Assembly (NCBI GenBank): GCA_965649765.1 | Contig: OZ287749.1 | Coordinates: 103,664,001 to 103,728,000 of the forward strand | Origin: Bispira polyomma | Lineage: Eukaryota | Reading direction: 5' to 3' | Length of the DNA stretch: 64,000 nucleotides | Shown here: piece after piece, positions 2,118 to 64,000 of the stretch | Position numbering within the stretch: the stretch's first letter is position 1 | Layout: every line of letters starts with the position of its first letter | Notes under the pieces: generated by a model | What the model was told of the DNA's origin: nothing | What the model saw: the letters and a program-made list of their open reading frames with translations, nothing else | The model's database searches: none | Position numbers and translations under genes: made by a program

Positions 2118-2594
2118 ACAGTGCCCCCTTGATGTTAAGGAAGACCTTGAAATTGATAAGATGTGAGTGGGAATATTAATTTTATTTCTATGTTAGACAA
2201 CTAAGTTATTTACACACTTTACTGTTAAGTATTATTTACTAACTTTAGTTAAAGGTCACCCTAAGGCCAAGATTAATTAAATTTAAGTAGGCCCTAAGTG
2301 GGCCATAGTTTAAGATAGCCTTACCGTGACTTCAAGGGCAGGGCAAAATTTAAGGTTAGCCTAACCTAATTTAAGGCTAGGTAGAGTTTAAGATTGGCAT
2401 TACTAGTTTAAGGTAGCCTTAACCTGAGTTTAAGGTTAAGGGCAAAAGTTGAGTTAAGGTCACCTTAACCTGTGTTTAAGGTTAGGTGATTTATGATTTA
2501 AGGAGCTTAGGGTGACCTTAAACTAACTACAATATGAGTATGTTTATAGTTATGACTTTTTGCATATAGATGAGATAATATAAAATATAGCACC
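2118..2594 (-). repeat. Split direct repeat B2 of element 1 (copy of B1 3273-3748)
   Basis: Near-identical ~475 bp copies. Confidence 0.92.
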
Positions 2595-3056
2595 ATAAAA
2601 TATATAAAATGTAGCATGTAAAAAAGTGTGTAAATACATAAAAGTAAAATAATTAAAATGCAAAAATGCTATCCAGCGTCATTAACCTAGACCTATAGTA
2701 CATCCATTTAAAAGAAAAGTGCCGACTAGGATGCACGGGAATTCTCACTCAAACCTTAAGTGGCTGACACAAATATAGCCCCTACACATGTAGTGCTGGA
2801 TGGCGAAATCGAGAAATCGAGGTACAATAGGCATGTGTTGCATTGCATTGTTGCTTGAGACAGTCTTTGCTTTAGCTGGTCTGTCCCGTGATGCCATTGC
2901 ATGTCGATCTGAAACTACATAAGCTATTGTTAGCATTGGTACAAGTTGTTCTCATACATGATAGCATTTATGACATATAATGATACATACAATTTTTGAC
3001 ATACATTATTATTACTACACTTTCCAGGTAGCCAATGGGGAAGAGGGTGGGATTTG

Positions 3057-3275
3057 AAAATGTATAATATAAAATGGCGTTTTGCCCTTCTGAGTTTAGA
3101 ATTATAAGTGGGATATTCCACACATTTGGGGACGACATAATTAATTAATTACTTAAGTGGACCACCCACCCACGAATCACAACACAGGTCAGTACAACAA
3201 GAGTGTTTACTTTAATAAGAATGTAGGACAACAAGAGGGCACTGAATTTACTAGCCTCGTGGGCTACCTTCCACA
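3057..3275 (-). repeat. Split direct repeat A2 of element 1 (copy of A1 8696-8913)
   Basis: Near-identical ~220 bp copies. Confidence 0.92.
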
Positions 3276-3757
3276 GTGCCCCCCTTGATGTGAAGGAAGA
3301 CCTTGGAATTGATGAGGTGAGTGTGAATATTAATTTTATTTCTATGTTAGACAACTAAGTTATTTACACACTTTACCATTAAGTATTATTTACTAACTTT
3401 AATTAAAGGTGACCCTAAGGCCAAGATTAATTAAATTTAAGTAGGTGCTAAGTGGGCCATAGTTTAAGATAGCCTTACCGTGACTTCAAGGGCAGGGCAA
3501 AATTTAAGGTTAGCCTAACCTAGTTTAAGGCTAGGTAGAGTTTAAGGTTTGCATTACCAGTTTAAGGTAGCCTTAACCTGAGTTTAAGGTTAAGGGAAAA
3601 AGTTGAGTTAAGGTCACCTTAACCTGTGTTAAAGGTTAGGTGATTTATGATTTAAGGAGCGTAGGGTGACCTTAAACTAACTACAATATGAGTATGTTTA
3701 CAGTTATGACTTTTTACATATAGATGAGATAATATAAAATATAGCACCAAAGCCCAA

Positions 3758-4747
3758 TTAGGAGGTAGGAGTTGTAAGGAGGGTTTGGAAGGAGAGGGCC
3801 ACTTTGTCAGATGCCTTGTGGTCCGAGGTCACGTACTTCCAAACACAGTCGGATGTCCAAGTTCCATGACTTTGGATGTCCTGTAAGGGGACATTATTGT
3901 TGAAAGCCATAGTTGCGCCAGAGTGGCGAAAGTCATGGAACGTGATGGGTGAGTCATTGAAACCCAATCTGAGGAGTATTACATGGAGGTTTCTACACAA
4001 TCTTGAGTCTGTGAGGGGACCCCAAGAGGCATTTTGCTTATAAAGAAATAAGGGATGATTTTTTTGAGCCAGGGGTGATGGCTAGGATATTTCTAATAGC
4101 TGTTACTGGACACAGAGGTGAGTTAGGGAGGGCAGGAACTTTGAGGACCCTAACCGTGTCCCTGGCCTGAAGTGTTTTGGTCCATTTAATGATAATGTGA
4201 AGACCTGGAGGAGTAAAAAGCACATCCGCCCTGGCCAGCTGGTGAAGTGGAGAATAGGTGGAAGAGGAGTGAGATACTGAATTAGAAATTGTAAGCAAGG
4301 CAAAAAATGCCAGGAGGTAAGCTCCTTCAAATGTTTGCCCCATGTACATTGAATCACATACTTTACTAATCAGGCTTAAGAGGTCAATGTCAATGATTTT
4401 GTTGATTTTTGCCTTAAATGGTCTGTGTAATGTGAGGGCCTTATTGAAATACTTAATACGTGGGTCATTGAAAGTGGTTGTGTCTAAACCATAGATTGCA
4501 AATTTGGCCTTAATTGCTGCCATATGATTGACAACAGAGGAATGAGACATTTTTCCCACTACCAAAAACTCCAGAAATGACAAGAGCAGCATTGGAGTTG
4601 TGTCTTGAATTTTGATTTAAATAAAACAGCAATAAGCCAGAAAAAGGCTGAACATTGCCTTATATGCTTGTTGGGTTGTAGGCCTAAATGCCGTATGGAC
4701 TCTTGTGGCTGCCTGAGCTGCTAGGAAAGCTGCCAGGGAGGGGAGAC
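3758..4747 (-). pseudogene. Tyrosine recombinase of element 1 (frameshifted)
   Basis: AFRPTTQQAY N-terminus, KWTKTLQ, LCPV, FHDFRHSGA, HGTWTSDCVWKY; catalytic Arg motif degenerate (LTISN); ORFs 4038-4592 and 3758-4000. Confidence 0.9.
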
Positions 4748-4757
4748 CTGAAATGTA

Positions 4758-6969
4758 TTATATACTCCAATCAATGTCCAGTAATTGGTCTGGAATGTCC
4801 ACCCACTCAGGGTGAGGTATGATTTGTCTTAGTTTGTACTCATTATGAGCTGTCATGTGCCACCTTGATAAGAGATCCGCAGCTTGACTGTTCTTAAATT
4901 TATGTCAGTGCCCGCCACTTCCATTAGGATGTTGCGTGCAATGGCAGCCAATGTTAGATCTTTAGTCCTGCCTGAGGTAAGGATGGACACCACTGCTTGG
5001 TTATCACAGTGGACCATGAGTTTTTCACCTGCTCAGAGGTATTTCCAGAGCCTGACGGCCACCAGGATGTTTAACATCTCTAGGTGGACGATGGTGAACT
5101 TTAGGTAACCTTGAGGGATAGTCTTGGTGTAAACTAAGCTGGTGCATTTACCACCTAGGCCCGTAAGACATGCATGTAATTCTATGTGGTAAGTTACCGG
5201 GGCATGGTCAAAGACCCCATTAAATTCACTAAGAAATTTGTCGAACCATCTGAGGTCTTGAAAGAATTGCACTGTGTCACTGTGTCAGCCAGTTTCTGGG
5301 GAGGGACCTCAATTGTAAACTTTAATGTATCTACTAGAACAGCTAAATAGTTGACTCTAGTGGTAGGTGTTACAATCTTTTTCTTACTAATCTCAAAACC
5401 TAATTCTTGCAAAAGGTTATACAATATGTTGTATGAGGCATGGGCGTCGTCGTGCGTGCCGTATCCTATGACGTCATCGATGTAGTTGATGACGTCATAG
5501 CCACGCCTATCCATGACGTAACATACGGCGTCACTGAGGCATTGAAAGATAGCACTTCCGTGTCTGTAGCCGAACGACAGACACGTATCTATGTAGTATT
5601 TGTCCATTCTGAGACCGAGGAGGTCATAATTGGCCGGATCTATCTTCACGTGCTGGAATGCCCGACTTATGTCTAGCTTGTATAACAAAGTACCTATTTC
5701 AAGTTTTGCTATTTTATTTGTTATGTCATCGACGGTTGGGAGAGTCAGGAGGAATTCAGTACCTAGATAATTATTTTTTCCAATTGCTGCATTGACTGAT
5801 TTGCCTTTTGGAAAACTCAGATCTATTATCACTCGGCGGTGATGAGGCCCAGGTTTCTTCCTTGTCATAAATGGGGAGATATGTAAAGGGGAAATGGGAG
5901 GTGTGTCAAACGGGTCCATTATTGCCCCATGTTGTTTTTCTTCCGCTAGATACGCTTTAACATCATTTAGAAACTCTACAGCTGACTTATGATTCTCTTC
6001 AACATGACTAAGTTCACTTTGCCGGTCAAAGTCCAACAGGAACCCATATTTTATGAAATAAATGAGCTGGGTATCCCAGTAATTGTTTAGCTTGCATTGC
6101 CATACATCCGGATTTAGTTCAGACTTTAGGACAATTTGTTCTCCTATGTAATTAGTCTTACCACTGTTTCGTACCGTCCGATGGATCTGAAGTGGTGTAT
6201 CCTTACTGGTGTGTTCTTTGTTAACCTCCAGCAATGTCAAGTCACCAAGCGGTATGAAACCAAACTTACTGCGGGTCTGTTTATCCCATTGTTTGTATAC
6301 CGGATTGTCACTAGCTTGTGCTATTATATCCCTATAGCGGGCCTTAACTTGTAACTGCAAGTCATATTTGTCTTCAGTACTAGTGGATGTACTTTGTTTT
6401 GGTGTACTGTGTTCTCTTGTATAAGTGACAGTACTAAAGCTTTTGACAGTGTCCCCCAAATGTGGATCAGTGTTCACCCCATCCCCTGTATATCCTACCA
6501 AAGGTGCAAACCTATTGTGGGACCTCAGACCTTGTTCTATTGTCTGACCTGGGTTTATTTTGGTTGCATAATCTTTGTTGATATTTGGTTTGTTTACATG
6601 GGGGTTAATGGGTTTTTCAGTCTTACCGTATTGCTCGTTGTAGCTGCTCTGCAATAGGTGCCTTTTTACATTATGTTCACATACATTATATACATCATTT
6701 TTTATCAACTGGCTTTGCACCAGGTGACATTTTTCCATTTTGTTACTGTGCATTACATTGTTAACATGTTTTGATACATTATTTACAGATTTACAACTTT
6801 GACTGATGACTTCTTTGGAAATTGTGGTATTGTTTCTGACTACTTCAGCATATGTTTTACCCTTAGCTAGAGCCCAATCTGCCCTCCAGTTTTCACTTGC
6901 TGCAGCTGCAACCACCCCATTTGTTATTATCCTGGAGTAAAATATGGGCACTGCAGACTTGTAGTGCCC
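4758..6969 (-). pseudogene. pol: Pol (reverse transcriptase + RNase H) of element 1
   Basis: RRVIIDLS, KLDISRAF, FGYRHGSAIFQ, NYIDD; RNase H fragment ELHACLTGLGG..IVHLEMLN; frameshifts and a deletion after 5272. Confidence 0.93.
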
Positions 6970-7997
6970 TATTTGATTTTGAATTTTGTTTCTCCCCCCC
7001 CCTCCCCCCCCCCCCCAGAATTTGATTTTCTACAATCTTTGGATGGGTCGCTGTAGCTTTTACCCCCTGCAAAGCAAAAAGCACATACATGGGTGTATAG
7101 CTGACCACCTGACTCATGGTCAGATTTCTGAAGACAAGTACCTTTCTGAAAAAATTTACAGGGTCTGCCTTTTTCATTATTTTTTCTACTGCTAGAGCCG
7201 TGGCCGGAAAAGTTTTGTGATGTAGTAACCCTTTGGGCATGAGCCCTACGGATCCTATCAATTTTATGGGTTTCCTCCCAGGATACTTTGCCCTCCTCCA
7301 TTTTACAGAGGAGGACAGCATGAGCCCCTTTAGCTGTGTTCCAGGAAAAATCATGACTATCCTCCATTAGTTCTGAAAGGTACTCGGGCATGAGGTCTTT
7401 GGTCACATTATTTTGCTCTTCTTTAATTATGTTTGTAAACCCTGATACCCATTGGGCCATTAAAAGACTGTCATAGGCTAGTCTAGATTTTGAGTGCCCA
7501 CCTAAAATAAAGTTCTGCGGCCAAGGTACTTGACGTTTAACCCATACTGTCTCAGACCCGCCCCTTTGGGAACGAAAGTTACCTGATTCATTTATGCGGG
7601 TCAGCTCTCGAAGTCGGGAGTCCACAGCTTCCTGGATGTGTGTTGGCAGCCTTAGCGACTGCACGGATGGCACCAGTAAGTCCGCTGCCGTGGCTTCTTC
7701 TAGTGGGACCCTGCTGGCTGCAAGTGAAGCTCCTGTGGGTAGCCGCACTGTTGTCTGTTCACTGCTGGCTGCCTCTCTGCCATCAGCAATGTCAGCTCTC
7801 TTTTCCATGTTGGTCATCCGACTGCTTAGATCAGTCTGCTGCTGCAGGATCAATTTGTTAACCTGAGCTGGTGACATGTCAGGTTCATCATCCGACTCAT
7901 CAGGTACTATGTTTTTGATCACTTTACATTTCTCATTAATTGGTTTCTGGTGATTAGACCCGCAGGCCTCACAGTCGTATGTTTTTCTGGGAGCCAT
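6969..7997 (-). CDS. gag: Gag-like protein of element 1
   Basis: Within ORF 6969-8108, likely ATG at 7997; N-terminal CxxCGxxH, VPWPQ, WNTAKGAHAVLLC, C-terminal Cys/His finger CKFFQKGTC..H..HVCAFC. Confidence 0.82.
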   Translation of the reverse strand: MAPRKTYDCEACGSNHQKPINEKCKVIKNIVPDESDDEPDMSPAQVNKLILQQQTDLSSRMTNMEKRADIADGREAASSEQTTVRLPTGASLAASRVPLEEATAADLLVPSVQSLRLPTHIQEAVDSRLRELTRINESGNFRSQRGGSETVWVKRQVPWPQNFILGGHSKSRLAYDSLLMAQWVSGFTNIIKEEQNNVTKDLMPEYLSELMEDSHDFSWNTAKGAHAVLLCKMEEGKVSWEETHKIDRIRRAHAQRVTTSQNFSGHGSSSRKNNEKGRPCKFFQKGTCLQKSDHESGGQLYTHVCAFCFAGGKSYSDPSKDCRKSNSGGGGEGGGETKFKIK

Positions 7998-9919
7998 AAT
8001 GCCCTCCAACAGTGTGTAGTTATGTTTGATATTAAGATTGTTTATATACCATCGACTGGATAACTTGTATTCAGCCCTGCTTATCCTCACACCTTGGTGT
8101 GTAGTCACAGTTGGGATTGTTTGTGGTTTTGCGGTACACCGTATGCTAAACTGTTCTTATATGTAATCACAGACAATTTGACATCCTAATGCACCCGACT
8201 GCATTGGCTATTTTTGGATCAACCACTCATATAATTCAATGTTTAGTTTGTAGCACAACCGTACACCCAGGTCACTGATACGTGTATAGTCTGTTTGGTT
8301 TTGTTTTTCCACTACTTATGCAGTTCACTGTTTAGTTTATAACACACTCGTGCACTCGAGTTGCACTGATATATATAGTCTAGCAAAAGTATACTGAAAT
8401 AGAATAGATCACAATGTGCTTAGATTTCTGCGAATACATAGAATGAGGGTGTGTGTTTGTAAATTTGATGTAAATACTTTAAAATATGTTAAAAACTAGC
8501 AATTAAGACAGCATAAATCACAGTATACAGCCCTCATTCATAGTCCCAACAAGTAGAGCAATATGCGCATAAATCCAAGCATAAGAAGCTTAATCTTGTC
8601 AGGAACACATCAGCAGGAGCTCCGTATCTTGTAATCCAGAGAAGCACATGAATTCCAAAGTAAAGTTCCTTTTAAAACACACAAGTAAAAATTTTAAAAT
8701 GTATAATATAAAATGGCGTCTTGCCCTTCTGAGTTTAGAACTATAAGTGGGATATTCCACACATTTGGCGGGACAGAATTAATTAATTACTTAAGTGGAC
8801 CACCCACCAACGAATCACAACACAGGTCAGTACAACAAGAGTGTTTACTTTAATAAGAATGTAGGACAACAAGAGGGCACTGAATTTACTAGCCCCGTGG
8901 ACTACCTTCCACACTTCTGCCTCGTGCCTCTAGAATCATGGATTTGACTCCATTCCAGTAGAATTGGTGAAGGCCAGTAGTTTGTAGGACAGAAAACAAA
9001 ACATTGTAACCTTTATAAGACTGATCACCAGTCCGACTCGTTTACCACCAAAAACAATGTCTATTCTGATATAATATGTAGTTGTTGAAACTGATAAACA
9101 AATATCAATTAATAACTTCAAAAATGCAGCTTTTTGTCATACTGATGTTAAAAGTGTTGCAATTTTATTATATTAATTACTTAATATATGTTTCTTTTAG
9201 ATAGTATTTTTTGCTACCATACATACTCCCTTAGATACACATATAGTCAAAGCGTACCCCAAAATACATCTGCCATATTTTTTAGTACTAATCCACAAAA
9301 ACCACACTATATTTATTACACACCCATTTCAATTAATTTACCTCCTAGAACACTGATGTAAGTAATGGGACTTTTACATTTTTAATCACTTTTCGCTTTA
9401 ATGCAGTCAGAGACAAACAACAGACATGTTTATGTGTAACCTATTATCTTGGCTATTGGAGGATGTGGTGAATTACTGTAAATCCACAAAAATATCATTT
9501 TGTTTTAATTTTTCTTGTTTTACCTCTAATATTAGGAGAAAAAACAACCACAGAATAACAATATGTCACAGGATCGAAGGCTTGATGATGACCAACTTTC
9601 AATTATTCTATGGTTCTTTAACCTGTCATCGGGAAAAGGACATATAGACAAAAAATCGCTCTTTTAAATGGTCCTGCCCTACTTACTCTGTGTATTAATA
9701 AGTGTTTCTCAGTAGGCCACCATGGCAGAGACAGATACGTCTGTATATTTATGTATCTGAATTTAAGTGACTGTGGTTAGAAGCACTTTAAAATCACTGT
9801 CCTCTCACCAATGTCGGTTTGATTCCTGTTTATTTTTTCCTTGCCTGCAAGTTTGTGATGTACTTGTGATGTACTTGCTGGAGGTCAGTAGTCGTTGATC
9901 AGCTCTTAAGTTGTCTCAC

Positions 9920-26876: not shown

Positions 26877-26926
26877 TGTCGCTCATAATCCCCTAAGTCA
26901 ACACTGAATGAGACTTCAAAACACTG

Positions 26927-28271: not shown

Positions 28272-28279
28272 AGTTATTT

Positions 28280-35339: not shown

Positions 35340-35993
35340 GGCCTTTAAACTCACCACTGGACACATAACATGATTATTTAATTCAGGGAGTTTAACCATG
35401 TGGACTTGATCAGGAGATTGTAAATTCTTTGCCAATTTCACGAATATGGACTCCAGGAAACTGAAAACTCACATCAGAACGACATAAATGTTTCTGGGGA
35501 TCAAAGTGATTAGAAGAAATCGGAGCAATATTGGAGATTCGCAAAAATCCATAAAAGGCTACCAAAAAGGCAGATCTATAAGTCCACGTGCTTTCATACA
35601 TCCCGCAAGAGCGAGAAATGTCTCTAATCTGGTTCACTGAAAAAATTCCCTTAGGACGAGATTTCACCACTCCTTCATACAGTAGTGCCTTAACAAACCT
35701 CCTGACAACCAAATTGTCCCAAGACTGTGTTGGCCAATTAAAACAACCAAACTGAAACTTCACAGCAGAGATGTAATTATTAATCACACAATATGATAAA
35801 CTTTGTGAGGCTAAAAACTCAAGAAAAGGTAAAACAGAGGGGACTGACCCCCATGACTGTACATCATGATATAACATAAAGGCCACAAAGACCTTGAACT
35901 GTTTATCGTATTGTCTATGTGTAGATGATATAATAGCATTCTGGGAGCGGTCAAGAGCAGAAACAACCGCCCCTCTTAGACTAGGAACTATAC
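35340..35993 (-). pseudogene. Tyrosine recombinase of element 2 (C-terminus lost)
   Basis: STHRQY..FVAF, AFYGFLRISN, LCRSDV, MCPV. Confidence 0.85.
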
Positions 35994-36018
35994 CTAAAAC
36001 ACAAGAAAAACAACACAC

Positions 36019-38098: not shown

Positions 38099-39769
38099 CT
38101 ACGCCTTCTTCTTATTGTTGCATTCACTTTCAACATGGTAATTATTCCGTTTCAAATACCGGAAGCAGTACATGCAAAGGTGTTTGAATATCGTTGATCC
38201 CGTTGAATCTGTATGCTCCTGGGAGTGCTGGCAAGTACCCTCATTGTACCACTTGCAGGCCACCTTCTTCATCTTGGCCTCCGCCAGAGGAGTAACACCA
38301 GGGTTTGTCTTGGTCGACATAGTGGTAGAGCCACTAAATACAGCGGCCTGTGAATAAGTCAACCTATTTTCTGCCAACTTGGCAACGTCCGTCCACTTGG
38401 TGGATTCCTCCTCAATCTGGTGCATAGACACCGCATACGCCCCTCTGGCTATGGGCCAAGACAGATTTTCAGCCAGCTTCACCGTTTCATTCAGTTCACG
38501 CAACATAGCATACTTAATGGACAAGTCCTTAGTACCCAGAGCATTATTTAAACACCCAACCACAAAATTTCGCAAGGACAGGTCATCATAAGGCTGGCGC
38601 TTCCTAGCTGGCCCAGTGAGGCAAGACTCGTTTGGCCATCTGAAATGTAACACTGAGTTAGACGTCTCAATCACGTTATGGCGTCCACTCTTCTTCCTAC
38701 GTGTACCTTGGGCCATCTCTGACTTCACACGTGCTTCCAAGGCAGCAATTTTGTCATAAACAAGTTGTTGAACCATCGGGTTTGCACGTAAGGATTCCAT
38801 TGTGAGCTCTTCTGCAGACCTGTTTCTGTTGTGGGACGAGAGGTTGCTGAGGAGCCTCCATCTGAGCAGGAATGACACTAGAATGTACCTGGACCGAATT
38901 ACCATATTGATCCACGAGAGGATATAAATTGTTCGAGTTAATGTCCTTAGGTCTCGTATCATGTTTAACGTATAAGTATCAGGAAAAGTCTGATGGTAAG
39001 GTGTGAGATTTCCCTGAACGAGATTCTGCTGCGAGAAGTGCTGCGTCTGAGAGTGAAGTTGGTTCTGTATACCAGGATGACAAAAATCAGAGGACGGGAT
39101 GTGAGATCTCGGAGGAAGACGAGGGATCTTAAAATCAACGTGATCACGGGGCTGAGCCATAGGAGCACCTGCAGGGGCGCCGAGAGCAGCTGGGAGCTCG
39201 CGAGAAGTCTTCTGCTTCTTGCTTTTTCCGGGAGTGCGCTTGCTCTTCACATCCGAACCAGCCATCATATTGCCCTCATTGGAAAAATAATCGTGCCACC
39301 ATCAGACACACTAACATTCAAACTCCCCTGGTCTGAAAACAAGGGCTCACTATCCTCCACAATGGAACAGTCATCCTCACCCCCCCTCCTCACGGGGTAC
39401 AGTGTCACGTGAAGAGTCCCTGCAAGATCTCAAATTCTCGCCTAACTTGTGTTTCCTCTGACGAGATTTACCCACTGAAGTTTCCAAACGTTTCTCTATA
39501 GAATCCAACTTCTTGCTGAATGATTGCATGGTAGCCATCACAGTCGCGAGAACATTCTGAGCGAGAAGAGGAGGTTCACCAGCTGGCTGTACAGAGGCTA
39601 AAGTTCCCGCATTGCTGATAGTCTCCTGTCTACCAACTTCAGCTCTATCTGATTTTTTCCTGCCACGCACGCAACGAGAGTTCACTGGACACTCGTGGTC
39701 ACAATCGCATTTCTTACAAAACGCTACTTTGGGTGGTGTACCCATCGGATGTGAGGCTGTGGCCATCAT
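38099..39769 (-). pseudogene. gag: Gag-like protein of element 2 (frameshifted)
   Basis: CKKCDCDHECP N-terminus, RWPNE, WPIARGAYA, CKWYNEGTC..H..HLCMYC..H..C. Confidence 0.8.
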
Positions 39770-39923
39770 TAACTATAAATACCCAACAGAATACACCTAC
39801 ACTGTGCTTCCAGGCAAAGAAGTACAGAGTAATCCAGAGGAGTGTACACATAAAACAGTTTTTAAAAGTTCTTCACTCCTCGTCATTCAAATAAATTCTG
39901 AAGGAATTAATGGTGGTGAGATG

Positions 39924-42189: not shown

Positions 42190-42610
42190 GAATCACAAAC
42201 ATATCTTTTTGTATAACATACAGCAGAATATAAATAATTACTGTCTTTTGGGCATAAGGTCCATTTATAGCATACAGTACATACTGTACTATTACTTGCT
42301 GCATGACTTCAAGTCTCTGTGCATTGAAAAGGACTTGACTTAAAGTCAATCCTCTAAATTCAACTTAAAAAAAACTTTGAGTTTCCAACTCAAATTCGAC
42401 TTCTTCCTGTAATTTGAGGTCACCTTAAGCTCAGATATAGCGTTCTTTAACTCATTTGCTATGGTGACCTCAAACCGAGTTAAGATGGTTTACACCTTAT
42501 GCAAAGTTGACCTTATGCCCTCACATAACTTAATTGTACAAAAACTTAAATAATAACTTTTTAATAAATATTTAAACCACATTTCTGGGTCTCTGCTAGT
42601 CTTCACTGGG
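42190..42610 (+). mobile_element. Non-coding hairpin-rich insertion resembling a YR-retrotransposon B repeat (paralog ~52965-53376)
   Basis: Absent from A-type units; TGTGT at both junctions; 12-bp IR TTTGAGGTCACC/GGTGACCTCAAA; shares AGGTCACCYTAAGCTC with the element 1 B repeat. Confidence 0.55.
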
Positions 42611-45286: not shown

Positions 45287-45327
<41 letters not shown>

Positions 45328-47299: not shown

Positions 47300-47780
47300 A
47301 GGTAATGTTTTTATTTCTATAGCACCACAATAGATGACTAGGCATCCTCTGTGGCACATATCTTAGTAAGTGTGCAAAAGCATAGTCCGGTAGACGGTAA
47401 AAGGTTTGCGATAAGAGATTCAGTAGTGACCATCAGATGCATGCTAGGGTGGAAAAGCGAGTTGATACAGATGTGTTTTGAGCCTTTTTCTGAGACTGGT
47501 AGGGATGCTATTCCACTCAGCATGTGCTGCAACTGAGAATGATTTTGAACCAACTTGTTTTGGTTTTTTTTGGAAGGAAACCAGAGGTGGAGAGACGATT
47601 GCCTCTGGTGAGATTGTTGAGAGACAGCATAGATGCTAAGTAGGCAGGTTGATGTACATGGACTGATAATGAGGACAATTACCTTAACTTTAATACGAAA
47701 CTCAATAGGTAACTAATGTAATTGTTTCAGCAGGGGAGTATTGTGAGTGCAAGGGCCATCATGGCTTACAATTCTGCACA
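47300..47780 (-). mobile_element. L2/CR1-like LINE 3' fragment
   Basis: Broken translation PLLKQLH*LPIEFRIK and WNSIPTSLRKRLKTHLY. Confidence 0.65.
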
Positions 47781-50700: not shown

Positions 50701-51993
50701 CAATAATCTGCCCAGTATTCTACTTTAACTTCCTTGATGACTCAACAAGTAACCTATTTGACCACAAACAAAAGAAGCAATTGGCCTTTGATTTTTACTT
50801 AATTTTGTTTTATTGCACACTAGACTTGTTGTGTAATTAATTTATGGCTAATATGTCACTGTAGAGTTCAGATAACAGGTTTCCCTAAAACACCTTTGCT
50901 GCAGGAGGGCAATGATGGGGGTGACATATGGCTTTACATCAATGTTATTCCTTCAAGCAGTAAGTCCATAAACAGTGGAGTTATTGTGTCATTCATCTTC
51001 GGTATTGCACCATTGATGTAAATAACCATATCAGCAGCACTTTAAGTTCATTGGAAATTTTGATTTTAACTATTGGCTTATTGTTTAGTTAAAATATAAC
51101 CACAAGTTTAAAGTATAACTAGCTATTAGTTTTCTCTATGTCTACGCTTTAGCAAAAATTGCTAAAATTAATTTCTGGTGAATATATCCACTAATATAGT
51201 ATATTGTGACTCACTGACAAGCTCAAAGTGTGTTCTATTAACATAATTTTATCGTCTTACAACATAACTGTGTGGGCAACTATAATACACAATGTAACTA
51301 GTAAATATTAAATAAGTAAAAACGGAATATATATATATATCCTGTCAGCAATACATTATCTCGCATAGAATGCGAGATTATTTTTTTTATCTTAACTTAA
51401 GTGTTTTTCAAGATCATGTTCAAAAGCTTGATCAGTGAAGATAAAGTAGAACCAACTAAAGTTCATAGAGTTATAAAACCATAGATAGAGGAAGGGGGTG
51501 GCATATTATTACATCATAGTAGCTTCTGTAAAACTACATAAAAGAGACAAGCTGTCCTTGGTATCAGTTGGCAATGGATAATTGTGAACTGTAAAGGTTA
51601 AACAACAACATTTGTGTAGTTAAGTGTTTCTTTTCACAGACTTGAAACCTGAGAATGTAATTTAAAGGACTGACTCATTTTAATAGATAACATTTATTTG
51701 GACATATAATGTTTCTTTGTACAGCAAGTAATCAAAAAGAATAGTTTGTAATGTTTTCTGGGATGGCACTAAAAAGTATATTCTTGCTGTAAAGTGACAT
51801 CAAAAAGCTTGTCAGGTAGTATTGTATTTGATTATTATGTGTAATATCTTTCATATTGATGTGTTTTATCTATTTGTTACTTCATCCCACGTAATACATA
51901 TTGGAGACTTTGTGATCTTGATGGTTCACACCAAATATTTAATCTTCATAATCATTTTTATAATTTTCCTTATTCACACTTTCCTCTTGGGTA

Positions 51994-52246
51994 GGGGCCG
52001 CGGTGGCCTAGTGGTTAGCAAGCATTGCGCTTCACAATCACTGGTCTCTCACCTCTGGGCGGCTTTAGTTCGAATCCCGTCAATGCCTATGTGGGAAAGG
52101 TGGTAATCCTTGCTGTAGGCCGCTGGTTTCTCTATAGAACCTTGACCGACTGTATGCAGTGTTTACTCCAGCGTTTCCAACTACCCGTCCCAATATAACC
52201 TACTAAAAGGTACTAGAGTGGACGTTAAATATCCAAATTCAAATTC
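51994..52246 (+). mobile_element. Young tRNA-derived SINE
   Basis: A-box GTGGCCTAGTGG, B-box GTTCGAATCC, CAAATT tail; 14-bp TSD TTTCCTCTTG(G/A)GTA; absent from the paralogous site near 41470. Confidence 0.9.
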
Positions 52247-54413
52247 TTTCCTCTTGAGTAAGAGTTCAAGGTAATTCAATTATGACTGGGTGTCAAATCT
52301 AAAATACAACAACATCTCTCTTCTCTGACACTCAATTAAGTAGATTTAATCATATTCAAATGTATGATACAATTAGCATTATCTACCACAACAAATGTCA
52401 AATGTTTTCCTAAATACAGCCCTGGCAGCATACTTAGCAACTAATCTTTTCAAATCTTGTAAAGTTTATATTTTGGAAGCTTAGTTTCCTACATTGTTTT
52501 AAGTCAATGATGGGAAGTCATCACACAGACGTATTAAAGTTTTCCAACCCTCTAAATGTCCTTTTAACATATAATGCAGCCTTAAATGGTATATTTGGTT
52601 ATAAATACAAAAATCTCGTAAAAAATGATATAAAAATGTTTCTACATATTTTTTTCTAATACTTCATGGGGCTATTGTCTATTAGTTACATAAAACATCT
52701 GTGCTGCTAATGACACTTGCTACTGTTGCCTAGTCAGCTGTAATGCTGAGTATTTGCATGGTGCCTATAAAATAACGGTTTGAGACCCTGCCCCAGCATT
52801 TATCTGGAAAATATGGCAGTAGACTTTTTGAAGGCCAGTGGTTTGTGGGAAAAAAACTTCAAACTACCCTTTTACCCCAACAATAAACTACCCATTGCGA
52901 TGTTAAACCCCAAACTAAAACTACACACAAGACTCTTTTTAAAACATAAAATGTGACATTGTGTGAATCACAAACATATCTTTTTGTATAACATACAGCA
53001 AAAATATAAATAATTACCGTCTTTCGGACAAAAGGTCCATTTATAGCATACAGTACATAATGTACTCTTACTTGTTGCATGACTTCAAGTCTCTGTGCAT
53101 TCAAAGGGACTTGACTTAAAGTCAATCCTCTAAATTCAACTTAAAAAAACTTTGAGTTTCCAACTTAAATTCGACTTCTTCCTGGAATTTGAGGTCACCT
53201 TAAGCTCAGATAGAGCGTTCTTTAACTCACTTGCTTCCGAGTTGAGGTGGTTTACACCTTATGCAAAGGTGACCTTATGCCCTCACCTAACTTAACTGTA
53301 CATATACAAAAACTTAAATATTAACTTTTTAATAAATATTTAAAGCACATTTCTGGGTCTCTGATAGTCTTCACTTAGGGATGTTATCCTCCAAAAGTCT
53401 TAATATGACTGATCCTAAATCCAACTCCCTTACCACCAAGAAACTGCCAATCCTGATATAATAAGCAGCTGTTCAAAGTGATAAACATGTATCAATTGTC
53501 AATTAAAAAATGCAGTTTCTGTCATATTAATGTTAAATATATAGCACCATGAGGTGCACATATGTGTTTATTATGTTCATTACTGAATAGGTATTTTCGT
53601 ATGTTTTGCTACAATACATATATCTAAAGCAATTCTACCTCAAACCACACCTGCTTTACTGTTTAGCAGTAAGCCACAAAAGCCTCAGTATATTTATTAC
53701 TCACCCATTTTAATAAATTTACCGCTAGACCACTGATCCAAGTAATGGGACTTTCACATTTTTACTCCCTGGCTTTAATGCAACCAGAAACAAACTGCTG
53801 GCATGTTTTCGGGGGCAGTGTTAAGTCATTGCCTTTGTCAGTCCTCCACGACCTTAATCTATGAGGGTACCAGTCTGTTACTAACACAGGTATAAAAAAC
53901 TTAAGTCAGTAAACAACCCCCATGTTGTTAAGAGAGAATACAGGTAATTGGATCTGATTGGGCAAGGCCCACAGGACGGTTAACTTACTGGTAAATAAGT
54001 TCAGTTTGAATTTAGCCACAGACAGTGTGGCAGGAATTTTCTGATTTCTGTTTTTTTGCAATCTGTGATTTCTTTTACTTATTTTACACGATTTTACAAA
54101 CTGTGACTTATGATATATATGAACAACACGAGGATTATTTTAGTATTTTAGTGTTTTATGAATGATTGGAAACTATCTTATTGACTGTGTGCTGGCAGCT
54201 GTCTCCTCTCTGACAACCTCATGCTTGATTAGCCCTTGGGCTGGCTATAAAGGGATGAATATCACTTCTAAATTAACATAATTTACTATATTACTAGCCG
54301 AGATATAATCAAGTTGTGAAGTGGTCAGACAGGAGGACTGTGGGCTGTTTTATTCTCGTTTCAGAGACTATATGCATAAATTGCAAAGTAAAAACTGTCA
54401 AAAGACTTACAAA

Positions 54414-55536
54414 ATGCCACAATCGAAAGGGCTGTGTAGAAAGTATGGTAATAGACATGTGCCCCCCACAGGAAAGAAATGTACTAGGGATATTCATATA
54501 GAGACTGACACAGAAGCTGTACTAGAAGCTCGTGTAGTGAAGGACACTCCTGTTAAAACACACGGGCGGGAGAGTCGCGGCGGGAAGAAGTCGGCTGCGG
54601 ATGCGGGTGATACAGACCAGGACATCCAGAAGGAGATCCTTCAACAACTGCAGAGAGTGAACTCAAGGCTGGACGCAGTGGAAGATCAAGTAGCCGAATC
54701 CAGGACCAGGCACACAAAGGACAAGAGGACTGGTGGCAAGTTAAGTAGAACTGTTTTAAGTCAGAAATGTAAAAGGAGTACTAGTGAAGACACCTCAGAT
54801 TCTGAATCCTCAGATGAGGAGCAGGTATTGCCAAATCTAACCACTTTGAAAAGTTCCACTTCCTTTCAGCGTCGGGTTGATACTAGATTAAGGGAGTTGG
54901 AGAAGGAAAGTCAAAATTCAGGTAACGATAATTCAAGTAAGATCAAGTCAAAAAGGGGGGGGGGAGGTGGTTGATGTAGTAGTGAAAAATAAGGTAGCGT
55001 GGCCCCAGGAGGCAATTTTAGGAGGGGTTACCAGAAATAGAATGTCTTATGACCAATTGTCTTTGACCCAATGGGTTCAGGAGTTTTGCAAAAATATTTT
55101 GGAAGAGTCAGACAGTGACAAACGTGATAAAATGGTTATGTACATGTCAGACCTCATTGAGGACGCCACGGATTTTACATGGCAGGGCGCCAAGGCAGCA
55201 CATGCTATCCTGCTGTGTGAAATGGAAAGGGGCACCCTCACATGGGATGACAGCAATCAAATCGATAGGATTCGTAGGGCTCACGCTCAGAAACATACCA
55301 GTAATACCTTTGGCAGTAAAAATTGGGATAAAAAGTAAGATCAGAGTGGCAAAATATATTGGTTTTGTAAGTTTTATCAAACAGGTATGTGCACACATAC
55401 AAAAGACCATGAAATTGGTGGTAAGTTACATAAGCATATTTGTGCTCACTGTCTGGCTACAGGTAGGGTTCTGTCCCATCCAGAGAAAGATTGTCTTTTT
55501 GTAAAGAAAAATAGTCAGCAGCCAAAAAACGAGTAA
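54414..55536 (+). pseudogene. gag: Gag-like protein of element 3
   Basis: CRKYGNRHVPP, VAWPQ, WQGAKAAHAILLC, C-terminal CKFYQTGMC..HICAHC..HPEKDC; frameshift in a G run and a premature stop. Confidence 0.82.
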
Positions 55537-57915
55537 TCAGCTGTCTTCAGAATCCTAGTACAGAAGGCAGCTGGAAACTGGGTAAGAAAGGTCAGTCAGG
55601 AGTCAGTTGTAGTAACACAGTTAAGGTTTTTAGTGAATTGAAAAAAACAGCAAATGGTAGTAATGAGACTAAAGATTTGACTAGTCTCAAGAAAGGTAAT
55701 GTAAAAAATGCTAAATGGTCTCAGTATAAAACCAAATATAGTGACAAGTGCTTCTACAGTAGTAGAGCCAGGAAACAAGATGTAGACAGTCTGCTTATAC
55801 GGTCACTTAAAGATGTAATGTGTACATTTAGGGCTGTAAGTTGTGATTTCAGAGCTAGATCATATGCTAGCATAGTGAAAATAGACTTAAGACAAACACA
55901 CGACACACGACTGGCACTGAAATAGTACCACAAAAAGTAAGTCAGCTCAAGCCAAAGACATGTACTGACAGTTTAACAAAGGACCAACAAATACAGAAGC
56001 ACGACCACCCAAAGGGGGAAGTGAGGGAAACCCCTCCCCTTAAACCAATTAAACCCAACAGAGTCGAAGGCCCAGTGGCTAAACAAGAAACTAAACTGTT
56101 ATATGACATAAATGGCATGGAGGACAAGTTCAGTCACTCCATATTATTTAACAATGTCAAAACGAAATCAAAACAACCTGAGGTGCAATGTGACACTTAT
56201 GATAAGTATTTAAGACAGACTGAATTCCAATTTGTTTCATTCCATTGAGTGATCTCACACAACTTGACAGCACGGACAGTAACACTAGTGGTATTGAATG
56301 TCCAATTAAAAGACATAATGAGGTGAAATAGGGGGGCAGGCCTAATTTAATGGGGGCTCGTATACCTGTAGCTTCACATTTGAACATAGAACAATGGCGT
56401 CAAATGCTTAATGGCTATTGGGATAGCCAACTTATTCAATTGATAGAATTTGGCTTTCCTCTGGGCTTCAATAGAAACTGCCAACTCAGATGTGAAATGG
56501 ATAATCATAAGTCGGCTCAGTAACATGCTAAGGATGTCAGTGCATATATCAAGGAAGAAAAAAGTTAGGGAGCCTTAATAGGTCCTTTTTCAAAAAATCC
56601 AATTAAGAATGGACACCATTCTCTATTTATGACAAGACATAAACCTAATTCTGCCAATAGGCGAGTCATAATCGATCTGAGCTGGCCTAAAGGGTTTTCA
56701 GTCAGGAGTCGATAGAGACAGTTACTTAGGTGCTGATTTTAAGTTAAATTTTCCTACCATTGACGATTTGACTAGGGAGCTTACCAAGTTGGGCAGAGGG
56801 GTGCATATCTACAAGCTAGACGTTAGTCGCGTGTTTCGTCATTTAAAAATAGACCCAATGGATTATGACTTGCTAGGTTTACAGTGGGAAGGTACCTACA
56901 TTGATACTTGTCTCGCCATGGAAGTCACTTTTTCCAACGCATCAGTGACGCTGTGCGTTATATCATGCGTCAACGTGGTTTTAGCGTCATTAACTACATC
57001 GACGATTTTTTAGGGTACGGCACACCCACGGTAGCAAAACGCTCATTTGACTGCTTATATGACATAATGGAAAAATTAAAACTGACCATCAGTCAAAAGA
57101 AACTGGTAAAACCAAGTACACAAGCAGTGTGTTTAGGTATCTTAATAGACACAGTCAAAGGAACTGTAGTAATACCAGAAGAAAAATTAACTGAGATTAA
57201 GTCAACAGTTACGCAATGGCAGACAAAAGAGTGTTGTACAAAAAGACAACTACAGTCTTTTTTGGGCCAGTTACTCTACATACACAAATGTGTTAAGCCA
57301 GCGAGGTGTTTTCTTAATCGTATGCTGGAGGTACTGAGGCGCATTGTGAATCCAAACAAAGTTGACTTAACGGAAGACTTCAAACGTGACTTAAGATGGT
57401 TTCAGAAATTTCTGCCTGATTCCAATGGTATATCAATGTATGGCCATAAAAGGGTAGATCACACTTTAGAGTTAGACGCTTGTTTGCATGGGTTAGGGGG
57501 TAAATGGAAGAATCTCGTTTATCACTTACCTATTCCTCTAAATTTCCAAAATTTAGAAATTGTTCATCTGGAAATGATAAATATCTTGGTGGCCTTGAGA
57601 TTATTTGGAATCCATTGGCAAGGCACCAAAGTTCTCATAAAATGTGACAATCAGGTAGTAGTTCATGTTCTCAATTCAGGCAAGGCCAGAGACCCTTACT
57701 TATCAGCATGTGCTAGAAATGTGTGGTATTTGGCGGCAACAACAGACATTGACTTACAATATATACATGTGCTGGGTAAGAATAACAGCACAGCTGACTT
57801 ACTATCCAGATGGACAAATTCTGTGAGCAATATTGTAGAGTTAAACACACTGGTAGATAGCCCAGTATGGCTAGACACATCAATAGAGTTGACACAAATT
57901 GATAACACATTGTAA
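55530..57915 (+). pseudogene. pol: Pol (RT + RNase H) of element 3
   Basis: KLDVSRVFR, NYIDD, ELDACLHGLGG, IVHLEMIN, CDNQ, ADLLSR; several stops and frameshifts. Confidence 0.93.
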
Positions 57916-57984
57916 TTCTTATTATTGTTAAATTGTTCTGTCTTATATTATCAGTAACAATAGATACTATGCTTTGTGTTGTAG

Positions 57985-58958
57985 GATCTGAGGACCTACA
58001 GTCCTTATAGTCTGGAGCTAGTAAGAGGCTGCACATGGCATTCAGGCCCAAGACAAGAAAATGTTATTTAAGTCTTTTCAGAACATTTATTGCATTTTGT
58101 ATGTATACTGGTTTGGTGTTACAAGCTTTAGAAGTAAAAAATATCATGTCATTTCTAGAGTACTTGGTTATAAACAAAGTTTCTGTCCACATGGTGGCTA
58201 ACTATGTTTCAGCGTTAAAAGCCATGAGTATAGTATATGATCTGCCTTTTGAAGTGTTTGATCACCCAAAAATTAAATATTTTATCAAATCTCTTAAAAT
58301 TAACAGAACACATGTGATTGTGAAAAGAAACATAATGAATGTAACTACATTGGAACAGTTGATAAGGCATTGTGGCCACATCAAAACTTCACAGGTCTAC
58401 AAGGCTATCTTCCTCACAGGTTTCTTTGTGTTTTTCAGACTTTCGAACTTAGCTCCACATTCAGTGAAGGAGTTTGACACTTCACCTCATTTTACAGGTG
58501 GGGATGTCTTTTTTGAAAAAGGCGTTGTTAAAATTCTGTTAAAATAGTCCAAAACGTTACAGACGAGAGACAAAGTTCACATAATAACTTTGCCTAAATT
58601 AAAATCTTCACTGCTTTGCCCTTACATGGCATTGAAAAACCTGTTTAAGTTGTATAGCCCTGGTAAGAATGACCCTTTATTTCAGTGTGATACAGTCATA
58701 GGCAGGCAGGTGGTCATTGATTCGCGGGTAAGGAAAATTTTGGCGCGACTTAATGAAAAATTGGGCTGTCCTTCGAATTTTTACACATTCCATGCATTCC
58801 GACATTCAGGTGCCATTCTGGCTTATCAGGCCAAGGTTCCTATACAACAAATCAAAGAGCATGGCACCTGGACGTCGGACTGGGTGTGGACGTATATTCA
58901 AGCAAATGCTAATAATACTGAGGTGGCCACCACCTTCCAAAGACTGTTAAATATCTAG
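57985..58958 (+). pseudogene. Tyrosine recombinase of element 3
   Basis: AFRPKT..Y, FRLSN, K*SKTLQ, FHAFRHSGA, HGTWTSDWVWTY. Confidence 0.92.
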
Positions 58959-60719
58959 TGCTTCTACCCCTACATCTTGGGCTTGAGGCTTTCTGTATCT
59001 TTGATATATATAAAAAAGTAAGTCAGTGTAAAAGTTGAGGTCAATTGAGGATGGAAGGTTTAAATTCAGAATCCACACTTGTGGCTTAACTTAACCTTAA
59101 ATTGGTACACTTTAACTTAACTCTGGTGACCATTCAAGTTAGGGTCACCTCAAACTTCTGTACTCAGGTGTCTCATCATTAGTTTAAGAGCACCTTAAAC
59201 TGAAATTCAAAATGTATTGAATATACTTAAATTAAAATTAACTCTAAGAATAAACTTAAACTGGTTATCAGACATCTGACCTCAGCTTAATTTGCATGTT
59301 GTCATCTTATATTATTGTATACTTTAACATGAAATGTATATAGTCAGTAGTTTAGAACCTATATTTTACACAATTTTACATATATTTTATATAATAAAAA
59401 TATATACACCCTCATAGATTATTTATTCTTGACTTGGTAGTGGTAGGGACTGTCGGGGGCAGTGTTAAGGCATTGCCTTTGTCAGTCCTCCACGACCTTA
59501 ATCTATGAGGGTACCAATCTGTTACTAACACAGGTATAAACAACTTAAGTCAGTAAACAACCCCCATGTTGTTAAGAGAGAATACAGGTAATTGAATCTG
59601 ATTGGGCAAAGCCCACAGGACGGTTAACTTACTGGTAAATAAGTTCAGTTTGAATTTAGCCACAGACAGTGTGGCAGGAATTTTCTGATTTCCCACGCAC
59701 CCTATTCCCTTGGAGTAGGTTAGCATTAAGATAAGCTAGTCCAAGAAATGACTACTATAATTGAGGTGTACCATGTACTCCTTTGCTCAACAGAGACATT
59801 TAAACGGTATGAGCTCGATAGGAAGTTATATTGGTCTCGAAGTGCATCTACTTATGACTCAAGGTTGTTAGTAAGGAATTTGCTTAAAATGCTATAAGTG
59901 ATTTGACACAAGTTACCATTTTGCTGGATCATTGTTTTTACCATGTTATAGCCTGTTAGTCCTCGGTTTTAGTAAAGGTCTTAACTCATGTCACATTGGA
60001 AGAGGCTTTCTGTATCTAAGTTATATATAAAAAAGTAAGTCAGTGTAAAAGTTGAGGTCAATTGAGGATAGAAGGTTTAAATTCAGAATCTACACTTGTG
60101 GCTTAACTTAACCTTAAATTGGTACACTTTAACTTAAGTCTGGTGACCATTCAAGTTAGGGTCACCTCAAACTTCTGTACTCAGGTGTCTCATCATTAGT
60201 TTAAGAGCACCTTAAACTGAAATTCAAAATGTATTTAAGTCCAAACTTAAAGTGAAATTGAGTCTAAGAATAAACTTAAATTGAATATACTTAAATTGAA
60301 ATTGACTCTAAGAATAAACTTAAACTGGATATCAGACATCTGACCTCAGCTTAATTTGCATGTTGTCATCTTTTATTATTGTATACTTTAACATGAAATG
60401 TATATAGTCAGTAGTTTAGAACCTATATTTTACACAATTTTACATATATTTTATATAATAAAAATATATACACCCTCATAGATTACTTATTCTTGACTTG
60501 GTAGTGGTAGGGACTGATGTGTGGCCTGTTGTCTTGGCTAGTGGAGGATTACTGTGAACGCACAAAAATATCATTTCTTTTATAATTGATGGCAGGGATG
60601 AAAAGGGTAGTTGATTTACCTCTAGTGTAAAGACAAAAAAAAACCAATAACAATATGCCACAGCATCACAAGCTTGAGGATGACCATTTATCAATGCTTC
60701 AATGCTTCTTTAGCAAGTA

Positions 60720-60979
60720 GGGGCCGCAGTGGCCTAGTGGTTAGCAAGCATTGCTCTTCATAATCACTGGTCTCTCACCTCTGGGCGGCGTGAATTCAAA
60801 TCCTGTCGATGCCTATGTGGGAAAGGTGGTAGTTCCTTACTGTGGGCTGCTGGTTTCAGTGCAGAACCTTGACCGACTGTATGCAGTGTTTCCTCCAGCG
60901 TTTCCAACTACCCATCCCAATACAACCTACTAATAGGTACTAGAGTGGACGTTAAATATCCAAATTGAAATTCAAATTT
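60720..60979 (+). mobile_element. Young tRNA-derived SINE
   Basis: Same family as 51994; TSD TTTAGCA(A/T)GTA; absent from the paralogous site near 42995. Confidence 0.88.
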
Positions 60980-63900
60980 TTTAGCATGTATCTTGTGATA
61001 GAATATAAAGATGAAGAACTGCAGTTTTAACTGGTCATACCCTACTTACTCACCATTGTCAGTTCGAATCCTGTTCATTCCTTTATGTGGGAAAGTTTGT
61101 CAGGTACTTGCTGTAGGTTGATGGTTTACAATGCTTCAGCACTGGTTTCAGCCACCATTGAATCTGGCCCTCTTGGTATGACCGAGGCTGTTGAAAGCGA
61201 CATAAAGACCAAACTAAATTTAGAACTAACTGTCTCTAACGGCTTTATGATTGCAATCTCTAGACTGGTTTATTTTTTGATGTAGTAATTCTAGTATTTT
61301 GTAGCCGTAGTAGAGTCACAAATTTTTTTTCAATTCATGTCCTTACAACTATTATTTCTTTGTAATCATATTCTGTCGCCATGTGTTAACATTAGAGGGG
61401 ATAACAAAAAACTCATGGAAGAAGTAGATATTTAGTGCAAACATGTTTAGATATCTTATTCGTGCACTGTATACAACTCCACTTGGTCAAGTAATATCCT
61501 CCCCCCACCCCCAAAAAATAACGGTTTCCATGTCCTTGAAAGCGACATAAAGACCAAAAAACCACTATAAATGTTGAACATGCATGCCAATTAATTTACC
61601 TCATTTACTTAAAATGCTGAATCAGGTTATGGGCTTTATCTAGTAATGGAATACAAACGTGTGAGACAAAAAGTTATAAATTTGATACCAAGATTGTCCT
61701 TATCAATTATATTTACCTTCTCCTTTGCACACCATTACAAAGAAAAACTCTATGCTGGATTTTTGTGATACCAAGGCAACATTTCGTATTATCTGTTCAA
61801 AATACTAGCTAATCAGATTCTTCAACTGTTTGTCTGTATTAAGTTGTGCACTTACATAAGAGTTAACATTCAATGGTTATGTATATTTCTGAAAAACCTT
61901 TGCTTCTGTCCGTCAATGTTCCTAGTTTGAAGTAATTTTGTTCTTTACACATAACAATTTGTCTAACCCATCATTGCCCTGTAAGATAATAAAAAGGCTA
62001 ATCCCTCGAACGATAACCAATCAGATCACACCATATGACCCATTTATTCACTGGCCAACGACATGCTTCTTTATCTTTTTTAAGGGCTTATGCTAGTTTG
62101 TTTAGGAAGACAAGCAACGGTTATGTTAATTAGGTTCAATTGAATTGCAAATATTTTTGTGAATCAAAAGTTGATACAAACCTCTACACAAACTCATGCC
62201 CACAAACACAAATTCACACACCACCACACACACAGAAGCACATGCAGTATGTTCATAAAGAGTGGGATTATTATCTAACCGACCTCTGGTCTTGCACTAT
62301 TCACGTAAAGTACTTTAGAAGTGATATTTTCAATTGGCAAAGATTTCACTGATATACAAGTAATCTGTAATTATTAATTTTAACTATTGTCCATTTGCTG
62401 AGTCAAAATATAAATTTGTTTTAAAGTATTATTAGAGATAAACTTTCCCACTACTCATCAGTTAAATAGCTGAAAAGTTTTTCACTAATATAGAGTATGA
62501 TGATAGGCACTTTCTTTGTGTGTGGATGAAAGTAACAAATTACAAACAACTGTGGATATTAAGGAAATAAAATTTACAAAGAAAAAACAAATACATATAT
62601 ACATGGTCTCTTATATAATAGGTCTGATTTTCTTTACCGTAACAATCTTCCAAGAATATTATCAGAAGCTTGATCTTTGGAGGCAAATTTGAACCAAGCA
62701 AGTTTCTAAATAGTTATACAACCATAGATGGAGGAAGGGGATGGCATAAAATAAATTGGTAATAGCTTTGGTCATACCCTGTGCCCTGAAATCCTTGTTT
62801 CCACCAGTTGACAATGGATTAAATGGTTAAACTTGTTTTTCAGTTAATTGTTTCTTTTCACCAGACCTCTGAAATATTTTTTAGGACTAACTTTTTTTAA
62901 ATACGAGAAATAATTATTACGACACTTAATGTATACAGGTATGTATCAATGGAAGGTAATCCATCACAATAGATTGTACTCTTTCTTGGGATGTCGCCAT
63001 TTTTACACGCTATTCAACTGTGACCAACTGTGACTAACCCCAATAAACTTGTTAGGAGATATTGGATTTGATTATCTGCAAAAATTATTTCCTATTGAGA
63101 CTGATTAGTTAGTTTTCAATTCATCTCCCATACAAACTGTTAAGGCATTTAGGGCAGTTTTGGTAAAAATATTGCAATTGCAATTAGTAAAACAAACATC
63201 CCTGGAATAAGTTTTACTGTCTGTGGGTATAATGATCACAGGAATGAAGAAAATCAGAACAAACTGCCATAGAAAGAGAGTTGGCTGGGTATGTGGTGAG
63301 AGAGAAATTAGCCAACAACTGTCAACAAGAGCCGGTTTCAAAAATATTAACGCCAAATTATGACACACAAGATATATAAAATTCTCATAACAGAAAGCAC
63401 ACGTCCTCTTGAATAACAAAGTTCAAGGGAATCTAATCATAACTGGGAGTCAAATTACATAGAACATCTTTCTGATGCTTATCAAAGGATATTTCATCAT
63501 CCTCGGATATATAATATGACTGGCATCATTCTTAGATATGACATTAAAAACATCATCAACAATTATATCTAAATGTTTTAGACATATATGGGGATATTGT
63601 CTATTATTTTAAAAATCTGTTATACTAATGTCACTTCACAGTTCTGCTACTGTGGCCTAGTGGGTAACTAACTCATTTTGTAATGCAGAGTATTTACAGA
63701 CTCTTCTGTCTGGTGCCTATAAAATAATGGGTTTGACACCCTGCCCCATTACTTTGGTGGGAAGCTTGGCAGTAGACTTCTTGAAGGCCAGTGGTTTTTG
63801 GGAAAGAAAACTTGGCAAATTACCCTGTTTTGCTTTCCTCCAGGAATAAACTAAAAATAAAAAATTAACAAAAAAATTAACAAATTTATATGTAGATAAC

Positions 63901-64000
63901 AGTGAAGAAATGAAGTAAACGTTTTGTACAAGTAAAAAGTAAAACTTATGAGGTAAAAGTAATATTGTGTATAAATTAAACAACTGAAATGAGAATACAA

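Follow-up and report, generated by a model that had tools for sequence, protein, structure and literature searches.

A probable programmed -1 ribosomal frameshift cassette at the gag-pol junction of Ngaro-type retrotransposons in Bispira polyomma

Analysis of a 64,000-nt stretch of Bispira polyomma DNA (hereafter the window), with searches for related loci in the same 1.035-Gb genome, found the slippery heptamer A_AAA_AAC conserved at the gag-pol junction of a family of Ngaro-type tyrosine-recombinase (YR) retrotransposons. Judged from comparison of the sequences, the heptamer, its codon phase, the -1 position of pol and a potential hairpin downstream very probably constitute a programmed -1 ribosomal frameshift cassette for Gag-Pol, likely functional at the level of the family. 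The mechanism itself is classical and found in textbooks, and the cassette has the sequence features by which it is recognised.

Class and layout of the elements in the window

Elements 1 and 3 of the window are Ngaro-type YR retrotransposons with split direct repeats, a class set by layout and domain content. Self-comparison revealed repeats in the order A1 ... B1 A2 B2 in both elements (Table 1), and split repeats were also present in the related copies L171, L172, L176, L178, L181 and L182, as well as in L303. The Pfam domain order is gag, pol (RT or RNase H-like) and YR with little overlap between the ORFs; the YR hits lie below curated cut-offs, in the expected order. One copy with identical repeats has the complete layout, with a gag of 374 codons, a pol of 868 codons in the -1 frame and a YR of 341 codons. 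No Pfam hit to a methyltransferase, a protease or a DDE integrase was found in these elements, and a methyltransferase after RNase H gave no hit at E<=1 in four unbroken Pol frames; Pol of L176 ends 33 residues past its RNase H match. The lack of a methyltransferase after RNase H separates the elements from DIRS1-like and PAT-like elements, and PAT-like elements are described as having the same repeats with a methyltransferase in the available parts of PMC8547959, PMC9210276 and PMC3266345, which also define the Ngaro layout. Identity as LTR retrotransposons or retroviruses was rejected, as the repeats are split and are not LTRs, a YR stands in place of rve and no protease was hit.

Comparison with named Ngaro elements (order DIRS), as presented in the available text on the Cafeteria burkhardae Ngaro (PMC8547959) and Xenopus DIRS-53_XT (PMC9210276), showed the same arrangement A1-[gag, RT/RH, YR]-B1-A2-B2, short ORF overlaps and the same lack of methyltransferase, protease and DDE integrase. 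The elements described here differ in a unique stretch of ~275-460 nt that keeps A2 and B2 apart (window 59693-60001 and 2596-3051; L176 6512-6786), and no recoding signal is defined for the named elements in those parts of the two papers. Elsewhere the window holds a Polinton/Maverick-like element (~11743-29198) with terminal inverted repeats and rve integrase, ATPase, BIR, C2H2 and NADAR-like hits, and several nested non-coding repeat families (31800-35200, 40165-53800, 60517-64000) into which elements 2 and 3 were apparently inserted.

Table 1. Coordinates of the features of elements 1, 2 and 3 in the window
Feature	Position	Strand	Basis or remark
Element 1, whole	2118..8913	-	self-comparison, Pfam
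Element 1 repeat A1	8691-8913	-	
Element 1 gag	6969-8156	-	
Element 1 pol	5194-7029	-	
Element 1 YR pieces	3758-4616	-	
Element 1 repeat B1	3273-3749	-	
Element 1 repeat A2	3052-3275	-	
Element 1 repeat B2	2118-2595	-	
Element 1 decayed heptamer C_AAA_ATC	6975..6981	-	8/9 cluster members have A_AAA_AAC
Element 1 compact hairpin (second hairpin class)	6946..6969	-	fold, alignment
Element 1 predicted splice donor	7581-7582	-	
Element 1 predicted splice acceptor	4748-4749	-	
Element 2, whole	about 35410-39772	-	RT and RNase H-like hits (Pfam)
Element 2 gag stop UAG then G, predicted readthrough site	38099..38101	-	
Element 2 pol, same frame as gag, 522-codon ORF	36530-38098	-	
Element 2 predicted splice donor	38705-38706	-	
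Element 2 predicted splice acceptor	35994-35995	-	
Element 3 repeat A1	53809..54048	+	98% to 59453-59692 (self-comparison)
Element 3 gag-like ORF, three pieces, C-terminal Cys/His finger ahead of heptamer	54309..55536	+	
Element 3 predicted phase-1 splice donor GT, mid-gag	54922..54923	+	
Element 3 pol (linker, RT, RNase H), begins in -1 frame, broken in window copy	55515..57915	+	
Element 3 slippery heptamer A_AAA_AAC, gag frame	55524..55530	+	sequence; kept in 113/137 junctions
Element 3 spacer, 7 nt, contains gag stop TAA (55534-55536)	55531..55537	+	
Element 3 11-bp stem and 14-nt loop, predicted frameshift stimulator	55538..55573	+	fold, alignment
Element 3 predicted phase-1 splice acceptor AG, just past pol stop	57983..57984	+	
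Element 3 tyrosine recombinase ORF, internal stop	58011..58958	+	Pfam Phage_int_SAM_4 and Phage_integrase, below curated cut-offs
Element 3 repeats B1 (58985-59452), A2 (59453-59692), unique stretch, B2 (60002-60516)	58985..60516	+	self-comparison

Element 3 is a dead copy, yet its signal is intact. Its gag loses the frame near 54963 and meets a stop at 55336-55338; compared with a 97% identical copy, its pol has frame-changing differences near 55882, 56235, 56705 and 56915. Since the gag stop lies upstream of the heptamer and pol is broken, this copy cannot make Gag-Pol. The open stretch of the -1 frame covers 55515-55925, closing after 136 codons. An earlier note on this DNA had this frame open into an ORF at 55638; the frame is indeed open there, but that ORF is a TTG-started piece of the same stretch, ends at 55925 and contains no RT, because pol of element 3 is spread over several frames. 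The other features that the note gave for this junction were all recovered, namely a gag end reading CCA AAA AAC GAG TAA, the heptamer, the 7-nt spacer and the 11-bp stem with one G-U pair. For element 1 the note likewise gave the right frame relation (pol -1 to gag), the right place for a stem and a fair description of its C_AAA_ATC site as decayed, given the intact heptamer in the remaining eight members of its nine-member cluster (Table 1).

Heptamer, frame relation and hairpin at the junction

A total of 170 loci were fetched with the sequences of elements 3 and 1 as queries, 80 of the 120 remaining matches of one search being picked to span subfamilies. The gag finger served as anchor in 156 of these loci, which yielded 137 distinct junctions; the other 14 had no anchor. 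The median nucleotide identity of their upstream gag region is 64%. Analysis of the 137 junctions revealed 113 exact A_AAA_AAC heptamers, ten AAAAAAT, six with one other mismatch and eight with two mismatches, counts that overstate independent events because the copies are related by descent. AAAAAAT is the expected product of CpG decay, as the C of the heptamer belongs to a CpG dinucleotide. On the element 1 side, 34 further loci made up a second set, with the hairpin motif as anchor, and gave 28 exact heptamers, two AAAAAAT, one decayed site and three loci without a junction. Anchoring took the best heptamer match, searched for past the finger in the first set and ahead of the hairpin motif in the second, and is thus biased toward finding the heptamer; phase and background controls answer this bias for the first set only. 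Among the 113 exact heptamers, 99 stand in the gag (X_XXY_YYZ) phase. Upstream in gag, the in-phase heptamer was counted at 20 of 27,234 codons, its spelling is used at just 20 of 277 other Lys-Asn dipeptides of gag, and in any phase it occurs in 54 of 1,370 60-nt windows of the linker. The heptamer at the junction is therefore more than chance, and the conservation that the earlier note proposed to check in other genomic copies was found.

The comparison of proteins covered 120 Gag relatives (43-64% identity) encoded by other genomes; the finger could be recognised in 109 of them, and in 102 of the 109 it is directly followed by Lys-Asn. A metagenome scan with a 24-sequence Gag alignment gave 185 pattern matches, none of which was confirmed, and an Rfam gathering search of the whole window gave no match.

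The conserved pol core is reached in 121 of the 137 loci. The frame from junction to core is unbroken in 44 of them, with 39 in the -1 frame, none in frame 0 and five in +1; the remaining 77 are broken between junction and core and are uninformative on frame. Four of the five +1 copies come from one subfamily with a poly-C run of varying length in the stem, and the fifth lost its heptamer by deletion. When the loci were grouped at 85% identity into 41 clusters, most members met a stop within 40 codons in frame 0 and in +1 in every cluster, and in -1 in 11 of them. The linker from the junction to RT spans ~200-250 codons.

These data bear on the alternative that Pol is translated separately, whether by reinitiation, at an internal AUG or on a shorter transcript, and that the heptamer is no more than Lys-Asn codons in an A-rich gag tail. 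The gag tail is indeed lysine-rich, and in the majority of unbroken copies the linker contains at least one in-frame ATG. However, the position of the first in-frame ATG is not conserved, ranging from 215 codons before the core to 90 codons inside it, and L056 and L120 have none ahead of the core. Furthermore, the spelling of the Lys-Asn codons is fixed at the junction and not at other sites, and the -1 frame is open right past the heptamer while the other two frames close. We regard separate translation as very unlikely, and frameshifting as the reading that fits the junction.

Two kinds of length change were seen near the junctions. In three pairs of loci (L070/L187, L134/L185 and L135/L183) a single indel ahead of the heptamer places gag and pol in one open frame of ~900-1200 codons. 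Homopolymer lengths, of poly-C in the stem arm and poly-G in gag, differ among near-identical copies and shift frames (L111, L117, L118, L120, L122, L123 and L125; window 6993-7017 and ~54960-54974), which could reflect replication slippage or assembly error.

The hairpin of element 3 has arms at 55538-55548 and 55563-55573. RNAfold over 55531-55590 gave -18.9 kcal/mol (z -2.9; matched or bettered by 2 of 200 shuffles), in line with the stem described in the earlier note, and over 110 nt the fold was not significant (z -0.3). Pairing of the loop with sequence 3' of the stem in element 3, a pseudoknot seen by eye, gave p 0.22. An H-type pseudoknot was rejected as the general stimulator, as three of 26 representatives reached p<0.05 and element 3 was not among them.

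Across copies, hairpins of two sequence classes were found. The alignment of the first class comprised 32 of the 41 cluster representatives; six others, which have the different hairpin, were aligned with element 1 instead, and L050, L051 and L078, with rearranged junctions, were left out. In the first class 84% of cells are paired, compared with 36-57% for slid partners. Seven core pairs are almost always paired, and C-G to U-G changes are frequent. Two-sided changes are few: they occur at four of 12 pairs, a count that 84 of 500 shuffles reached, and in 15 cells, reached by 5 of 500; the covariation score was reached in 18 of 500 shuffles. The second class, in the element 1 clade, is a compact stem of 7-10 bp, 6 nt past the heptamer, with a sequence unlike that of the first class and no covariation among its seven sequences. 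Across copies the stem was thus recovered as hairpin potential at a fixed distance, but covariation is modest in the first class and absent from the second. The occurrence of two hairpin sequence classes at the same place is a better argument for a structure, at the level of sequence, than covariation. A recurring E-G-S in the pol frame is encoded by the 3' stem arm, and protein constraint on it could contribute to conservation of that arm. Within the element 1 clade, a motif that resembles the 3' stem arm of element 3 was seen 60-90 nt past the heptamer in another reading frame (window ~6860-6895, minus strand; L050, L060).

The same junctions were considered for two further explanations. One is that Pol is joined to Gag by splicing, with GTAA past the heptamer as donor. 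GA|GTAAGT is present in several subfamilies and splice-like signals occur elsewhere in the family, but the GT is absent from whole subfamilies (GAATAG, GATTAA, GAGCAA and GAGCAT) that keep both heptamer and hairpin. A donor at the heptamer was rejected for this lack of conservation, and splicing at the junction appears slightly less likely still than separate translation. The other is that a polymerase gains the extra base in the RNA by slipping on the A6 run, without involvement of the ribosome. A homopolymer run does exist, and the genomic copies L003, L138 and L169 have one A more or less; but the run is just six A, and the codon phase together with the fixed distance to the hairpin suits the geometry of a ribosome and is irrelevant to a polymerase. 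Polymerase slippage is the least likely of the three alternatives.

In the preferred reading, ribosomal frameshifting, Gag-Pol would be made from the unspliced RNA of the element. Translation would mostly end at the gag stop codon, directly past the zinc finger. Some of the ribosomes would instead be held up by the hairpin 6-9 nt downstream of the heptamer, slip one base back on A_AAA_AAC and continue via the linker into RT and RNase H. The element class, the conservation and phase of the heptamer, the -1 relation and the hairpin potential are observed; the slippage itself and its rate are inferred. The earlier proposal that Pol is made as a Gag-Pol fusion is thus favoured by the family-level comparison of heptamer, phase, -1 relation and hairpin distance, though not for the incapable element 3 copy.

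A_AAA_AAC is listed among the most shift-prone heptamers on mammalian ribosomes in the available part of PMC5009743. Relative to the classical -1 frameshifts of retroviruses and animal LTR retrotransposons treated there, the junctions share the in-phase A_AAA_AAC, a 6-9 nt spacer, a 3' stem-loop and pol in the -1 frame. They differ in that the host element has no LTRs, that a pseudoknot is not general and that no protease domain was found in Pol. The signal therefore matches the classic retroviral architecture named in the earlier note, but as its hosts are Ngaro-type YR elements, "retroviral" applies by analogy.

A UAG-G junction in a sister clade and splice-like signals for YR

Element 2 has lost its repeats; L303, of the same clade, has them in split form. 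Among 25 loci from a DNA search, two pairs of which overlap, 23 have TAG as the end of gag at this junction. The UAG of element 2 is therefore not a chance stop. Among 42 more distant loci, 28 have a recognisable finger and 14 have none; 24 of the 28 have TAG-G and no slippery heptamer. Where the frame is unbroken to the core, pol lies in frame 0 in 11 distinct elements, in +1 in one and in -1 in none, down to ~40% Gag identity. In a Gag tree of 64 sequences the UAG clade (18 sequences, support 1.0) is distinct from the compact-hairpin clade (15 sequences, support 0.95) and from the element 3 clade, with which the ENA proteins are intermixed (support 0.81); being midpoint-rooted, the tree gives no direction for a switch between frameshift and readthrough. 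These observations suggest that the element 2 clade likely reads through an in-frame UAG-G instead of frameshifting. In the available part of PMC3542737, type III readthrough at gammaretrovirus gag-pol and in Tombusviridae likewise has UAG then G, with pol in frame, and the sequence of the element 2 clade is often purine-rich as well. The clade differs in its host, a YR retrotransposon, and in the weak support for a 3' structure, a global duplex test giving p<0.05 in two of 20 and a G-rich partner ranking within the top 10 windows in seven of 18.

The pol-YR junction has features of another kind, as the pol stop is closely followed by a pyrimidine tract and YAG. Frameshifting from RT/RH into YR was proposed by Poulter and Butler (2015; quoted in the available text of PMC13003380); here, splice-acceptor features are found at pol-YR and the frameshift signal at gag-pol. 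A frameshift at pol-YR was rejected, as no heptamer was seen by eye in the junctions inspected, and the YR frame overlaps the end of pol in some copies and starts after it in others. A phase-1 donor, xAG|GTA, is present at the same mid-gag place in 20 of 20 scorable full-length loci (23 examined), and an open phase-1 acceptor in 17 of the 20. More widely, the donor was found in 98 of 137 loci of the frameshift clade and, in the UAG clade, in nine of the 17 whose sequence extends far enough upstream (the control gave 59 of 924 windows); the acceptor was found in 21 of 30 closely related YR loci (control, 10 of 450). Splicing at these phase-matched signals, which all three elements of the window have, would fuse the Gag N-terminus to YR. 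No spliced genomic copy was found among 30 YR loci of 40 matches. Contigs from three runs of unrecorded type, aligned to a related copy, contained no joint at the predicted intron, a comparison that has no bearing on splicing or expression. Translation of YR by reinitiation is a rival to such a splice, since many copies of the element 3 clade have an in-frame ATG a few codons ahead of the acceptor. In Cafeteria, loss of ORF1 changes the integration preference of Ngaro (available part of PMC8547959), an effect that a Gag-YR fusion could explain by analogy.

Implications for YR retrotransposons

Expression of RT and recombinase in YR retrotransposons is largely unstudied, the available literature noting ORF overlaps or suggesting frameshifting. 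No defined gag-pol frameshift or readthrough signal for these elements was found in the available parts of the DIRS/YR and recoding literature (PMC3783388, PMC8547959, PMC6681497, PMC3266345, PMC13003380, 10.1101/2022.06.16.496473, PMC9210276, PMC5009743, PMC3542737, PMC9341512, PMC7192593 and PMC2632668), and "DIRS" is absent from the first 300,000 of the 449,034 characters of the Atkins 2016 recoding review (PMC5009743); Goodwin and Poulter 2004 and Poulter and Butler 2015 may anticipate such a signal. The result is a short, defined cassette ready for a reporter, together with its naturally occurring versions in dozens of subfamilies; the same genome, and even the same window, also holds a sister clade that would use another recoding route. 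Annotators should note that pol and YR of these elements are likely to be ORFs without true start codons.

Tentatively, one transcript of these Ngaro elements may yield three products in a retrovirus-like programme. These would be Gag; Gag-Pol made by recoding, for which sister clades would have switched between the -1 frameshift and UAG readthrough; and YR joined to the Gag N-terminus by splicing. If this possible programme is true, the Gag-YR fusion would replace the YR frameshift proposed in the literature.
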